A stretch of DNA of 64,000 nucleotides from Simkaniaceae bacterium (GCA_021734805.1 JAIPIG010000004.1:4822-68821); one strand, 5' to 3'; positions 3,089 to 62,991 are shown, counted from the first letter of the stretch. Notes: generated by a model from the sequence alone, not told the origin. Translations and numbers: made by a program.

Positions 3089-3125
3089 CCAATTCTTCAA
3101 TTCTTCAATTTATTTCGGTATAACC
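3089..3125. repeat. Solo right terminus of the family-A palindromic element, with an internal 8-bp duplication (ATTCTTCA twice)
   Basis: CCAATTCTTCA[ATTCTTCA]ATTTATTTCGGTATAAC matches the right end of the full copy at 62966-62996, including the flanking ACCTC. No partner left end is nearby. Confidence 0.75.
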
Positions 3126-5011
3126 TCTTTTAATTTTGCAATTCCTTCAGATGCTATCGTATAGGCTTGATCAACCCGGTTCGGTTTATCAGGATAGCGC
3201 AGTCTAAGTAAATCCTTTCTAACCATGGATGTAAGAAATCTGGAGCGCAAGGCATCCGGGTTCCTCTGAAGAATATTTCCTAACTGTTTTCGATTAATCC
3301 AGCGCCCTTTACATAGTTTTAAAATCATCTGTTCCATGTCTTCCGAAAACAACTTTTTCATTTCCCTTGCAGTCTGAGCGATTATATACATTTCTTCCTC
3401 CTCCAAATGTACGGAGTCAGGGTCCAAATGTACGGAGTCAGGGTCCAAATGTACGGAGTCAGGGTCCAAATGTACGGAGTCAGAGTCCAAATGTACGGAG
3501 TGGAATTGGGAAGGAATAGAATATCGAGTCCACCGACCTTTACCATTTTGCCGTAAAAGCCCCCTACTCACGAGATCTTGAAGAAGTCGCGTCATATCCG
3601 CAGTATGTTTCCCGGTGATTTCACACATTCTCATGTTATCAACATATCCTTCTACATCTGCTGTCACTAAGGCTTGAATTTCTAATGGTTGAAATTGCTC
3701 GAATTCAGACCGATAAATATTTTTAAGTCGAATAAGAGAAGTATCAGGGATTAAGCTAATCATTGGAAGAATCCACAGTATTCGATCGGGCTGCACTTGC
3801 TCTCTCATAATAGGTTTACGCCAATGCTGAGATTCCCACCCTTTGCATATTTTGTCTACTCCTGATCCAGCTTTTTCAGCTGCACCAATCATCATAAACA
3901 TGGTTTGTAAAGCCTTATTTCTACATTCGCTTACATTACCACGCCAAAGTTGATCAATAGATATCAATAGGGCTCCGGGATTAGACAACTCAAAACGATC
4001 CGGATATTTTTCAATGATGATACCACCCTGACCGGAATAATCAGCATGAATAAGAGCATTTACTAAGGCCTCTCTAATTGCAATATGAACACCACTTTCT
4101 CCCCTGCGAAATAACTCAGCATCAAGTTGAAATGGTATTTTCAAGTCAGCATTTAATTTTTGTATGACCCTAATATAAAATTGGTATAAATTTCCCGACC
4201 AGGTTCCATCAAGCGTCAAGCGATCAGTCCAACGAACATGTGGATCATTTGATAATTTTTCTCGAAAATCAACTTGATATTGAGGGATCGCTTCCTTTAA
4301 AATTTGCTCCTGACCATACATTAAAAGACCTGCAATAGTAACTCCTTCTTGCTCCGTTTCTCGTGAATATCTATAGGCACCTAATTTAGATAAAAATTTT
4401 TTATCATCCTCTTCCAACCATGGATGTGTCGGTTTATGAGAAGCAAATCTCTGTCTGTATTGCCTTATACTGGCTAAATCCAAATCATTTATTGTTGCAT
4501 ATGGAATTATACGTTGATCTGCTGAGTATTCAGAACGATCTGCTAACATGTGAATGATCTCTTGTTGCGTACAATGATAATCCCCATCAAAATTCCGTCG
4601 ATATGTTCCTAAAAAGGGATTTTGTCCTATAAAAATTGGTTTTTGAAAATATTTAGCACGAGGAATATGGATAGATAATATTAATCCCTTAGCTGTTTCA
4701 ATAACCCTTAAATGCTCTTGACTTAATAAATTAACGCTAACCTTACCGCGATTATTAATTGTATTCCAAAAATCTTTTTTTATTTGATCAATCTTTGATA
4801 CGCCACTGATTTGCCCATCATTTTCAACCCCTAATAAAATCATTCCGCCAAATGAATTGGCCATTGCACTATAAGTTTCCCACAAACTTTTAGGCAATCC
4901 ACCTTTGGCTGATTTAAATTCAATATCTTCTCCCTCTTCTAATAGCAATTGAGATCTAATCTCATTTAGACGGATAGAATTTCTAGATGATACCATGATA
5001 AAACCATTCAC
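3110..5011 (-). CDS. AlbA_2 (Schlafen-type) / HATPase_c_4 / winged-helix protein; 'RecG-like putative transcriptional regulator' class
   Basis: 633-aa ORF. N-terminal EDIEFKSAKGGLP...SAMANSFGGMILLGVENDGQISGV fits the AlbA_2 pattern. Central REALVNALIHADYS...IIIEKYPDRFELSNPG fits the HATPase_c_4 pattern. Two wHTH-like C-terminal segments are separated by a DSVHLDP heptad array. Confidence 0.75.
   Translation of the reverse strand: MNGFIMVSSRNSIRLNEIRSQLLLEEGEDIEFKSAKGGLPKSLWETYSAMANSFGGMILLGVENDGQISGVSKIDQIKKDFWNTINNRGKVSVNLLSQEHLRVIETAKGLILSIHIPRAKYFQKPIFIGQNPFLGTYRRNFDGDYHCTQQEIIHMLADRSEYSADQRIIPYATINDLDLASIRQYRQRFASHKPTHPWLEEDDKKFLSKLGAYRYSRETEQEGVTIAGLLMYGQEQILKEAIPQYQVDFREKLSNDPHVRWTDRLTLDGTWSGNLYQFYIRVIQKLNADLKIPFQLDAELFRRGESGVHIAIREALVNALIHADYSGQGGIIIEKYPDRFELSNPGALLISIDQLWRGNVSECRNKALQTMFMMIGAAEKAGSGVDKICKGWESQHWRKPIMREQVQPDRILWILPMISLIPDTSLIRLKNIYRSEFEQFQPLEIQALVTADVEGYVDNMRMCEITGKHTADMTRLLQDLVSRGLLRQNGKGRWTRYSIPSQFHSVHLDSDSVHLDPDSVHLDPDSVHLDPDSVHLEEEEMYIIAQTAREMKKLFSEDMEQMILKLCKGRWINRKQLGNILQRNPDALRSRFLTSMVRKDLLRLRYPDKPNRVDQAYTIASEGIAKLKEVIPK
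3402..3501. repeat. 21-bp perfect or near-perfect tandem repeat, about 4.75 copies, in frame inside CDS 3110-5011
   Basis: The unit TCCAAATGTACGGAGTCAGGG repeats at 3402, 3423, 3444 and 3465 (one substitution), with a partial copy at 3486. It encodes (DSVHLDP)n. Confidence 0.95.
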
Positions 5012-5051
5012 AAATTTATTAAAATTGTGGATGGAATATATAAAATATTAT

Positions 5052-61497: not shown

Positions 61498-62811
61498 ATG
61501 TTGATCGATATGAGTTATCAAATCCCAAAAGGCTTATTTGACATCCTTCCCGCCTTTCAATCACCTAATGACTTATGGCGCACTAGTGATTACTGGCATT
61601 ATGTTGAAACAAAACTTAGATATCTTGCCTCTTTATACGGTTATAGTGAAATACGCACCCCCATTTTTGAAAAAACAGAACTATTTACACGCAGTGTTGG
61701 GGACACTTCCGATATCGTTTTTAAAGAAATGTATACTTTTGAGGATAAGGGCAAGCGCTCAATGACCCTTCGCCCTGAAGGAACGGCGCCTGTTATGAGG
61801 GCTCTGATAGAAAGCAGATCTCTTCATGAAACTCCTTATCAAAAACTCTTCTACTTCGGACCATTTTTTCGATATGATCGGCCTCAAGCAGGGCGCTATC
61901 GTCAATTTCATCAATTTGGGGTAGAAAGCATCGGGATTCCCGATCCGGAGCAAGATGCAGAAACGATTGCATTCTTATATCATTGTTTTGAATCCCTTGG
62001 CATTCGCAATCTCGTATTACGACTCAATTCAATCGGAAATCAAGCATCGCGATCGGAATATTGCAAAGCACTTAAATCTTATTTAGAACCCCACAAATCC
62101 CACTTATCTGAAGACTCACAAGCCCGCTTAGAAGCTAATCCTCTACGCATTCTTGATTCTAAAGATTTGAACGACATTGAAATCATCAAAAAGGCCCCTT
62201 CAATTCTAGATTGTTTAGATTCAGATAGCGCAGCGCATTTTTCTAGACTCCAACAACTTTTAAATGAACTTCGAATCCCCTTTAAAATTGAACACAACCT
62301 CGTTCGAGGACTTGATTATTATAATAAAACGGTTTTTGAATTCACCACTGAATCTCTTGGAGCCCAAAATACGATTGGAGCCGGAGGGCGCTACGACGGA
62401 CTGATTGAAAAATTAGGCGGCGCTCAGCTGCCGGCGATTGGTTTTGCTGTTGGCATTGAACGACTCCTTCAAATTTTAATCGAAGAACCCTCTCTACTGC
62501 CACCTCTTACGGGGCCTATGCTTCTATTACTGCCAATGGGAGATGACGCAAAAACAAAAGTTTTGTCTCTTTCTTCAGTACTTAGAAAGCACAACGTTCC
62601 TACTGAGATCTTTTTTAAAAGCAAAAAAGTTCAGAAAGCACTTCAACATGCAGAAAAAATAAAGGCTCAATTTTTTGGAGTTCTTGGCGAAGATGAAATC
62701 AAAAATCAATCGATTAAAATCAAACATCTGTCAACAAGAGATGAAACACTTGTGCCGTTTGATCAACTGCCCAATTTTTTTGAACGGAGACCAAATTACG
62801 GGCAAAGTTGA
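61498..62811 (+). CDS. hisS: Histidine--tRNA ligase
   Basis: 437-aa ORF. Class II motifs are present: FRYDRPQAGRYRQFHQFGVE (motif 2) and GAGGRYDGLIEKLGG (motif 3). There is a C-terminal anticodon-binding domain. An alternative ATG lies at 61510. Confidence 0.92.
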   Translation: MLIDMSYQIPKGLFDILPAFQSPNDLWRTSDYWHYVETKLRYLASLYGYSEIRTPIFEKTELFTRSVGDTSDIVFKEMYTFEDKGKRSMTLRPEGTAPVMRALIESRSLHETPYQKLFYFGPFFRYDRPQAGRYRQFHQFGVESIGIPDPEQDAETIAFLYHCFESLGIRNLVLRLNSIGNQASRSEYCKALKSYLEPHKSHLSEDSQARLEANPLRILDSKDLNDIEIIKKAPSILDCLDSDSAAHFSRLQQLLNELRIPFKIEHNLVRGLDYYNKTVFEFTTESLGAQNTIGAGGRYDGLIEKLGGAQLPAIGFAVGIERLLQILIEEPSLLPPLTGPMLLLLPMGDDAKTKVLSLSSVLRKHNVPTEIFFKSKKVQKALQHAEKIKAQFFGVLGEDEIKNQSIKIKHLSTRDETLVPFDQLPNFFERRPNYGQS

Positions 62812-62816
62812 GTAAA

Positions 62817-62991
62817 TATACCGAAATGAGTTGAAGAATTGGGGTTTTAGCTTTGATGGCGCTTCGAATTTTTATCAGGCTTAGCCGGCTTAATTTTTTG
62901 ATCCTATTGAAGATAGGTCAAAAAAATTAAGGGTAAAAAGTCGAAGATGCCGGCGAAGATAAAAACCAATTCTTCAATTTATTTCGGTATA
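62817..62991. mobile_element. Family-A palindromic MITE-like element (~175 bp), full copy, inverted relative to 53138-53312
   Basis: The ends are TATACCGAAATGAGTTGAAGAATTGG and CCAATTCTTCAATTTATTTCGGTATA. It begins 6 nt after the hisS stop. Confidence 0.85.

Follow-up and report, generated by a model that had tools for sequence, protein, structure and literature searches.

Palindromic repeats of a deep-branching uncultured chlamydia as very probable miniature transposable elements of two types, one derived from an IS701-family insertion sequence and one with ends of the Rickettsia RPE-5 type

The window analysed here is a stretch of 64,000 nucleotides from a Simkaniaceae bacterium (GCA_021734805.1, JAIPIG010000004.1:4822-68821). 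It has a G+C content of about 40% and is densely packed with housekeeping genes, among them lon, dnaJ, rpsU, gapA, rpoA, the S10-spc ribosomal cluster, fmt, lpxA-fabZ-lpxC, lnt, rsmB, ksgA, dacC, dnaE, hisS and mip; the sole RNA gene detected is a tRNA-Leu (22611-22695). The top relatives of the window HisRS are all Chlamydiota, in line with the Chlamydiae-type genome proposed in a first-pass annotation of the sequence, and the best non-self match is merely 63% identical. The window therefore belongs to a deep-branching uncultured chlamydial lineage. Its spacers carry hairpin-forming repeats of three families, termed A, B and C. All three are very probably non-autonomous transposable elements (MITEs, miniature ones with inverted repeats) of two systems, inserted by transposases encoded elsewhere, with family C derived from an IS701-family insertion sequence and families A and B forming a superfamily with ends of the type found in the Rickettsia palindromic element (RPE) RPE-5.

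Sixteen copies or fragments of these repeats were located in the window by a repeat finder, by BLAST of the elements against the window and by direct reading (Table 1). The elements are short (65-183 nt, below the ~300 nt usual for MITEs), non-coding and dispersed, and they carry terminal inverted repeats. All the sites listed in the first-pass annotation hold the repeats ascribed to them, and its description of dispersed, non-coding palindromes stands, but most of the limits it gave are those of whole spacers and not of the elements. The repeats add up to ~1.3 kb, or 2.0% of the window, instead of the 1.5 kb estimated before; the load is high, as had been claimed, in comparison with the 0.04-0.7% of repeats in classical Chlamydia (table in PMC2878342). 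On the ORF map of this analysis, 10 of the ~16 genuine spacers longer than 150 nt hold a copy. The earlier view that long spacers mostly carry one is thus borne out, although its list of exceptions had missed two marginal spacers (2345-2514 and 10608-10765). The end TATACCG-N7-TTSAAGARTTGG of families A and B occurs 14 times in the window with at most three mismatches, against 0.06 expected, and a chance origin of the window repeats is excluded. Folding z-scores are -10.8 for A, -11.2 for B and -15.8 for C, and all three fold into long hairpins. As had been noted before, the window contains no transposase: none was found at E <= 1e-4 by Pfam among 40 ORFs (at least 100 aa, outside the ribosomal-protein cluster), the same Pfam domains reveal no Y1 transposase, and the transposase of family C has no match in the window by tblastn.

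Family C is well supported as a MITE that is a deletion derivative of an IS701-family insertion sequence (IS). Its ends are inverted over at least 39 nt, reaching the whole arm. In a metagenome contig (L143; L numbers denote retrieved loci), positions 1471-3136 form an IS of 1,666 bp, whose inverted ends of ~125 nt align with the two arms of C. The 447-aa ORF of this IS matches Pfam DDE_5 (1.9e-19) and also DDE_Tnp_1, and it scores 252 bits with the NCBIfam IS701 family NF049999 against a cutoff of 170. Of 53 full C copies, taken from the window and further assemblies, 29 show a perfect direct repeat of 5 bp right outside CTCGAC...GTCGAG, and the 5-bp flanks match at four of five positions in 8 further copies; an exact direct repeat of 3, 4, 7 or 8 bp at the element edge is found in none of the 53. 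Transposase fragments 41-43% identical stand beside C ends in two further loci, L124 and L176. At L176 217-396, a C copy lies within the transposase gene of a related IS701-type element and is bordered by the duplication TGTAT. Removal in silico of this copy together with one TGTAT gives a transposase ORF of 312 codons that is colinear with the L143 protein, which amounts to an in-silico empty site for C; in this locus the MITE disables a relative of its own helper. Full-length C also occurs in other Chlamydiota metagenome-assembled genomes (MAGs), at 86% in L032, 77% in L092 and 70% in L039, and its end CTCGACTTTGCAACTTTTT is present in at least 120 metagenome stretches. Among the metagenome matches listed, 181 nt is the commonest length of the inverted pairs, and shorter forms with deletions occur in addition.

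In the proposed origin of family C, an IS701-type IS would have lost its transposase gene and its two long inverted ends would have become joined head to head. Because the two arms meet where the transposase gene was lost, C forms a single long hairpin centred on the GGGAAGGGG...CCCCTTCCC stem. An IS701-type DDE transposase would then move C in trans, with duplication of 5 bp of the target. The parent of C resembles the IS701 family in that it encodes a DDE transposase assigned to that family and carries the C ends. An ISAba11 subgroup with 5-bp repeats is reportedly listed in ISfinder. The inverted ends of the C parent are unusually long compared with those of the IS701 family. The duplication of C is short, about half a helical turn, as in the IS701, ISH3 and IS1634 families (PMC2266710); in length, it differs from that of the IS701 members, which mostly duplicate 4 bp, and the same source gives 'around five' for the related emerging families as a group. 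The relation between IS701 and C is an ordinary yet clean textbook case of the birth of a MITE.

Two further observations concern C and its end. In L180 (261-2367), a C copy is split by a group II intron with an ORF containing RVT_1 and GIIM, and the intron starts with GTGCGAC directly after the central GGGAAGGGG...CCCCTTCCCGG hairpin of C. Some group II introns home beside terminator-like stems. An exact C end is also present in two IMG/VR contigs classed as viral (L241 8773-8791 and L242 4925-4943); these may be true C copies, chlamydial DNA assigned to the wrong class, or chance matches.

Families A and B were counted separately in the first-pass annotation. They are in fact sister subfamilies that agree in terminal architecture and in skeleton, so that the window holds two element types rather than three. 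The two align end to end and have in common the end, a T-run, the motif CGCCGGCATC and a central CCTAT..TCAATAG hairpin. The full forms measure 175-177 nt, and their ends of 26-31 nt are 80-88% complementary within one copy. The defining end is the bipartite 26-nt inverted sequence TA-TACCG-N7-TTSAAGARTTGG. The deletion forms in the window (65-104 nt) include short forms produced by internal deletions between short direct repeats, as specified in Table 1. The two full A copies are inverted relative to each other and 96.6% identical; the two full C copies, likewise inverted relative to each other, are 92% identical.

The exact A/B end pattern was scanned over one genome per species in 185,579 species. 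This returned 119 loci, 88 of which lie in 18 Chlamydiota-labelled assemblies; these totals take in four Parachlamydiales/Parachlamydiaceae assemblies. The 88 loci comprise 175 A/B ends; their inverted pairs number 58 and most often measure 164-165 nt, with short forms of 60-104 nt besides, and the labels of the assemblies with A/B ends are Chlamydiia, Chlamydiales, Parachlamydiales, Simkaniaceae and Waddlia sp. The other loci are mostly single matches in unrelated phyla, in accord with the ~17 expected by chance in the 1.2e12 positions scanned. No named cultured chlamydia was matched by the exact pattern among these species genomes. Between genomes just the ends are conserved, the interiors being lineage-specific. 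Families A and B represent a Chlamydiota-wide superfamily with ends of the RPE-5 type, one that is apparently undescribed so far. A further repeat was seen in the groundwater Chlamydiia MAG JACRBF01, with ends TATACCCGTTCCACCTCAAAGGCGCCCA; it starts with TATACC as A/B do, has a different inner box and often abuts A/B-type copies (L004 1608-1635, L073 4548-4575, L092 2750-2920 and L072 95-1146).

How A and B insert has to be read from their surroundings. Outside the invariant TATA tips no direct repeat is found and, since TATA is itself palindromic, the flanks alone cannot separate duplication of TA, duplication of TATA and no duplication. Two other observations bear on this point. Back-to-back copies meet in a GGTA-TA-TACC junction with a single shared TA in eight cases, including that at 53134 in the window. 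Moreover, 5 of 72 paired A/B-type elements lie in long ORFs that stay open across them, namely in dnaA (L035), in genes for an rsmD-like methyltransferase and a tetratricopeptide-repeat (TPR) protein (both L065), in uppP (L068) and in obg (L094). From tip to tip, these copies measure 173, 164, 164, 164 and 125 nt, all of which are 2 modulo 3, and the net insertion is therefore a multiple of three only if exactly 2 bp were duplicated. The uppP copy is the weakest of the five, a remnant end being present at its site as well. We infer from the reading frames and the shared-TA junctions that A/B insertion duplicates TA. The copy in dnaA constitutes a unique linker insert of ~55 residues, absent from the 7 closest homologues in the alignment, and the conserved AAA+ and DNA-binding domains remain in frame after it. 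In the whole set, 36 of the 72 A/B pairs are 2 modulo 3 in length, and stop-free frames occur 2-4 times as often as in shuffled controls, an excess to which we give little weight as the copies are not independent.

A course of events can be proposed from these features. The A/B elements would insert at TA and duplicate it; the copies would then decay in place, microhomology deletion giving the short forms of 65-104 nt and truncation giving the solo ends, and further insertions into or beside older copies would produce the chimeric spacers. In other genomes, A/B-type copies survive within essential genes, as RPEs do, provided that the net gain in length is divisible by three. The mover might be a TA-targeting DDE transposase of the IS630/Tc1-mariner type, an assignment that we offer tentatively, by analogy with other TA-duplicating MITEs.

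Comparison with relatives argues for lineage-specific insertion of the window copies. These relatives retain the order dnaE-MFS-orf200-hisS-mip, and DNA of two of them, L244 and L245 (HisRS 63% and 58% identical), was available for a comparison of the spacers. The MFS–orf200 spacer measures 133-147 nt in these relatives and 364 nt in the window, where it corresponds to MFS–orf205 and holds an element B; the hisS–mip spacer measures 33-34 nt in the relatives and 275 nt in the window, where it holds an element A. No A, B or C end is present in L244 and L245. L032, whose HisRS is 49% identical, has a B-type element of its own, of 173 nt, between MFS and orf200 and, beside the MFS gene, a C copy; L115 has an A/B-type end between orf207 and hisS. 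A shared ancient B insertion in the MFS–orf200 spacer of the window and L032 was considered and rejected, given the closer relatives without the element; as these are empty, the copies in L032 and L115 are better read as recurrent insertions into the same permissive spacers. A contig of an independent Logan assembly equals window 60696-62845 exactly; its breaks fall within the B and A ends, the behaviour to be expected of sequence present in multiple copies. The identity of the two A copies and these breaks suggest recent activity in this genome. L115 (CAVWWT010000002.1) is labelled Verrucomicrobiae and L032 (CAZVHA010000005.1) uncultured bacterium; both have the chlamydial order MFS-orf200-hisS-mip with proteins 45-56% identical and A/B-type ends, and their labels probably hide Chlamydiota or close PVC (Planctomycetes-Verrucomicrobia-Chlamydiae) relatives.

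The link to Rickettsia comes from the obg copy. This element of 125 nt, in a MAG labelled Rickettsiaceae (L094), has 79% identity along its entire length with an element carried by pREIP, a plasmid of the Rickettsia endosymbiont of Ixodes pacificus. When translated, the pREIP element reaches 55.5 bits with the RPE5 model TIGR03776, whose cutoff is 29.45 (E = 3.7e-15), and the obg insert scores 26.6 bits, just below that cutoff. Both ends of the pREIP RPE-5 read TATACCTTTGATACTTCAA(A/G)A(G/T)TTGG and fit TATACC-N8-TTCAAGANTTGG with 0 and 1 mismatch, against 0.03 matches expected. One end of the L094 copy fits the A/B pattern derived from the window exactly and the other fits it with 2 mismatches, and in a second Rickettsiales MAG (L044) related ends flank leuS. 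Because the obg and pREIP copies are RPE-5 and their ends fit the A/B pattern, A and B are best read as chlamydial relatives of RPEs.

According to PMC3767692, PMC1779305 and PMC10969869, RPEs are palindromic, measure 100-150 bp and occur in spacers as well as, in frame, in genes of Rickettsia and Wolbachia; all three sources leave their origin and movement unexplained. For RPE-5, PMC10969869 and PMC3767692 refer to Ogata et al. (2000, 2002). A, B and RPE-5 have in common the ends TATACC-N8-TTCAAGAxTTGG ... CCAAxTCTTGAA-N8-GGTATA. In all of them, a palindrome of 100-180 nt spans the entire element, the host bacteria are obligately intracellular and copies occur both in spacers and in frame inside essential genes; a parent transposase is known for neither system. 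In contrast, the interiors of A/B and RPE-5 are unrelated, the copies of the window, at 175-177 nt, exceed RPE-5 in length, include stop codons and are intergenic throughout, and the hosts belong to the Chlamydiota in the case of A/B and to the Rickettsiales in the case of RPE-5. On balance we lean towards the view that A, B and RPE-5 form one MITE superfamily of two obligate-intracellular phyla, which would have been exchanged in shared eukaryotic hosts and moved by a TA-targeting transposase.

The pREIP RPE-5 has no other copy in the plasmid collection, and a word search with the RPE-5-like peptide of L094 gave no match. The plasmid element (L243 1501-1625) lies 33 nt downstream of a gene of the Rpn family (L243 578-1468; element and gene together pREIP 107429-108476) that is annotated as 'recombination-promoting nuclease/putative transposase', an adjacency that is possibly a coincidence. 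This gene was rejected as the parent of RPE-5, since no matching end is found on its other side.

Other candidates for an A/B parent were also examined. The ORFs by 91 solo ends were clustered and ~25 candidates were read, all of which proved to be housekeeping genes, with tail-specific protease, RluD, PrfB, LeuS and PdhA among those rejected. Pairs of TA[TC]ACC...GGT[AG]TA 0.5-4 kb apart turned out to be only pairs of separate MITEs, and a 931-nt repeat in L028 is a segmental duplication of radA. Neither the surroundings of the 91 solo ends nor the intervals of long-range end pairs contained an IS630-type transposase with A/B ends, the viral contigs showed no A/B end, and a search of the plasmid collection with C and A returned nothing meaningful.

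Several alternatives have to be weighed for the repeats as a whole. The idea that they are a local duplication or an assembly or binning artefact of this contig is refuted. It draws on the fact that the contig comes from a MAG and that assemblies may collapse or chimerise repeats. However, these families recur in numerous assemblies and samples that are independent of one another, A/B pairs being present in 18 other Chlamydiota assemblies and the C end in the metagenome stretches counted above, so that the first-pass annotation was right to see more than a local duplication; the exact match of the Logan contig and the differences of 3-8% between copies with distinct flanks and target duplications point the same way. 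If the repeats were structured RNAs or DNA hairpins with a function (terminators, mRNA stabilisers, attenuators or protein-binding sites), under selection at every locus and only secondarily dispersed, this would explain the very stable folds, the copies that begin a few bases past stop codons (62817 after hisS, 61403 after orf205 and one in L036 after a tail-specific protease gene), the resemblance of the centre of C to a two-way terminator hairpin, just after which the L180 intron sits, and the presence of B-type elements in the same MFS–orf200 spacer of two distant genomes. We nevertheless regard this explanation as improbable. The elements occur in both orientations and occupy divergent, convergent and tandem spacers as well as the interior of ORFs, most of the copies in the window are flanked by divergent gene starts, a setting that offers a terminator no role, target duplications and an autonomous parent show transposition, and closer relatives are without elements at the same spacers. 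In Rfam, only the tRNA-Leu of the window reaches its gathering threshold, so that the check proposed earlier yields no family at threshold on the elements, whose best matches in E-value mode are 23-31 bits against thresholds of 44-104. A scan for consensus promoters and terminators found such sites not enriched and did not single out the elements, and is uninformative. Compensatory change in inverted arms that bind a transposase cannot tell RNA structure from protein binding. Single copies could secondarily have been co-opted. Even less probable, and disfavoured here, are palindromes of the REP/RAYT or IS200/IS605 type (PATEs), moved as single-stranded hairpins by a Y1 transposase. They would share with our repeats the palindromic, intergenic and high-copy character, and a DDE parent of A/B is not known; yet the elements are 165-181 nt long with true terminal inverted repeats, compared with hairpins of 20-40 nt with GTAG or CGTC heads for REP (PMC3733652). 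Furthermore, C has a DDE parent and a 5-bp duplication, A/B behave as if TA were duplicated, and the window lacks a Y1 transposase, as stated above.

For A and B in particular, the resemblance to RPE-5 might have arisen by convergence or chance in a chlamydial MITE family of separate descent. No more than about 17 of the 26 terminal positions are common with RPE-5, the interiors and encoded peptides are unrelated, the intragenic reading frames differ (YTED... in obg and VYRNN... in the chlamydial genes), the comparison rests on two RPE-5 copies, and the exact-pattern scan matched no named Rickettsia genome. We consider such independence unlikely, since TATACC, the 8-nt spacing and the inner TTCAAGAxTTGG stand at both ends of both RPE-5 copies, the architecture matches that of RPE-5 (palindrome over the whole element, TATA termini, length 2 modulo 3), in-frame insertion into essential genes, otherwise rare, is common to both, and the second Rickettsiales MAG has related ends around leuS. 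Some results do weigh against reading the repeats as two MITE systems, one of them related to RPE-5. The four chlamydial in-frame peptides match no RPE model (RPE5, RPE3); A/B are therefore not RPE-5 itself, and the homology is confined to the 26-nt ends, the architecture and the behaviour. No autonomous element with A/B ends was found by the parent search, which covered the 1.46 Mb of retrieved loci and the window, and consequently we infer the enzyme and mechanism of A/B. Junctions of the form GGTA-TACC exist too (at least three) and, TATA being palindromic, a duplication of TATA is possible. The window A/B copies are all intergenic, and lengths of 175 and 177 nt do not preserve a frame. The lineage-specific insertions are without a base-level empty site, the nearest relative having only 63% HisRS identity, and C duplicates 5 bp against the 4 bp typical of the IS701 family (PMC2266710).

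TA-duplicating MITEs are known from other bacteria, namely the Correia elements of Neisseria and the RUP elements of Streptococcus pneumoniae. Effects on transcription have been shown for Correia elements, and we know of no mobilising enzyme identified for them. Like A/B, both have 100-180 nt, inverted ends and TATA tips, their target is TA, as is probable for A/B too, their full and internally deleted size classes occur together, and they are dense in gene-adjacent spacers. They differ from A/B in having no sequence similarity to them, and an IS630-type helper has been proposed for RUP, whereas none was found for A/B in the searched loci. RUP also appears in PMC10969869.

Literature searches linking MITEs, IS701 or RPEs with Chlamydiae returned no relevant paper and no prior description. 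The earlier remark that the repeats belong to no described family holds for the interiors and peptides of A/B; it does not hold for the A/B ends, which match those of RPE-5, or for C, an IS701 derivative. RPEs have so far been viewed as a peculiarity of Rickettsia, later extended to Wolbachia, and ends of the RPE-5 type across environmental Chlamydiota widen the phenomenon to a second phylum and make the search for the enzyme concrete. If the common superfamily is real, protein-coding palindromes are no peculiarity of Rickettsia and Wolbachia, the essential chlamydial DnaA, UppP and RsmD have been remodelled too, and the clear ends and TA duplication of the chlamydial copies give a first handle on how RPEs move. 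In the window, MITEs occupy most long spacers, including likely promoter regions of housekeeping genes, and give one gene its stop. As they break short-read assemblies, they affect MAG contiguity, gene calling and the reading of regulatory regions in chlamydial genomes.

The individual copies are collected in Table 1. Most of them lie between divergent genes, in likely promoter regions; the divergent spacers with copies are lon–tsaB, SURF4-like–rsmB, dacC–orf148, MFS–orf205, cyclase–methyltransferase and orf217–sulfate permease. The window A/B copies have stops in all the frames that were read by eye. The remainder of a former short element may extend from the degenerate B-like end to ~15458.

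Table 1. Repeat copies and fragments in the 64,000-nt window (positions counted from its first nucleotide)
Family and form	Length (nt)	Position	Strand	Ends and structure	Surroundings
A, full	175	53138-53312	+	TATACCGAAATAAGTTGAAGAATTGG ... CCAATTTTTCAACTCATTTCGGTATA	Between anti-sigma-type HATPase gene and unknown ORF
Remnant right end		53124-53137		TTTATTTTGGTA	Abuts A copy 53138-53312 via shared TA
A, full	175	62817-62991	-		Begins 5 nt past hisS stop codon
A, short form	65	21691-21755	+	Internal deletion between TTCGACT and TTCAACT	
A-like	104	19116-19219	-	Diverged ends TATACCGAAACGGAATGAAGAATCGG / TACACCGAAATAAATTGAAGAATCGG	Inserted directly beside C-type end 19101-19115
A, solo right end	39	3084-3122	+	9-nt internal duplication	On minus strand, gives last codons and TAA stop (3112-3110) of Schlafen/AlbA_2 gene 3110-5011
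B, full	177	60548-60724	+	Asymmetric ends TATACCGCTCGTCATTCAAGAGTTGG ... CCAACTCTTGAATCACTCCCGGTATA	MFS–orf205 spacer
B, truncated left end		60527-60547	+	TATGCCGCTCGTGATTCAAGA	Abuts full B copy 60548-60724
B, short form	79	55096-55174	+	Deleted between the two GCCGGC hexamers of the full form	
B, solo right end		61403-61439	+		Directly after orf205 stop codon, 59 nt upstream of hisS
B-like, degenerate end		15378-15403	+	3 mismatches	rpsU–P-type ATPase spacer
C, full	181	47191-47371 (47186-47376 with duplication)	+	CTCGAC...GTCGAG; 5-bp target duplication TTAAA/TTAAA	Divergent spacer of SURF4-like gene and rsmB
C, full	183	7729-7911 (7724-7916 with flanks)	-	Flanks TTTAG/CTTAG, 4/5 match	lon–tsaB spacer
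C, solo end		18975-18987 (18970-18987 with TTAAA)	+	TTAAA + CTCGACTTTGCAA	
C-like end		19101-19115	+	CTCGACTGTGCAACT	Abuts A-like element
C, solo end		51774-51791 (51769-51791 with TTAAA)	+	TTAAA + CTCGACTTTGCAACTT	~15 nt upstream of likely D-Ala-D-Ala carboxypeptidase start (ATG near 51754, after AGGAG)
Chimeric, C-like end and B right end		52624-52637 (C-like) and 52652-52667 (B)	+	CTCGATTTTGTAAG (C-like) and AATCACTCCCGGTACA (B)	49-nt convergent spacer

Some other features of the window were noted in passing. A small unlisted gene at 15092-15277 on the minus strand was identified from its translation by eye as rpsU (ribosomal protein S21); as it occupies the left part, the true dnaJ–ATPase spacer is ~216 nt. 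Within the gene 3110-5011, which carries Schlafen/AlbA_2 and HATPase_c_4 domains and is of a type often tied to defence or regulation, the 21-nt unit TCCAAATGTACGGAGTCAGGG is repeated five times in tandem at 3381-3506, forming an in-frame repeat of 7 residues. Two tandem paralogous genes of 672 and 678 aa (8589-10607 and 10766-12802), both without a Pfam match, have DNA blocks 72-89% identical and internal repeats of 42 nt (14 residues), and their upstream regions (10744-10788 and 13001-13045) are 87% identical. Finally, a 25-nt motif, CAACTTTGTGAGAAATGCGGG(C/T)TAG, is present at 22813-22837 and 27557-27581, once per spacer in two MITE-free spacers, and was seen in no retrieved locus outside the window. 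The two copies lie upstream of the P-type ATPase gene and of gapA, each facing its gene, and the motif may be a shared operator or promoter element.

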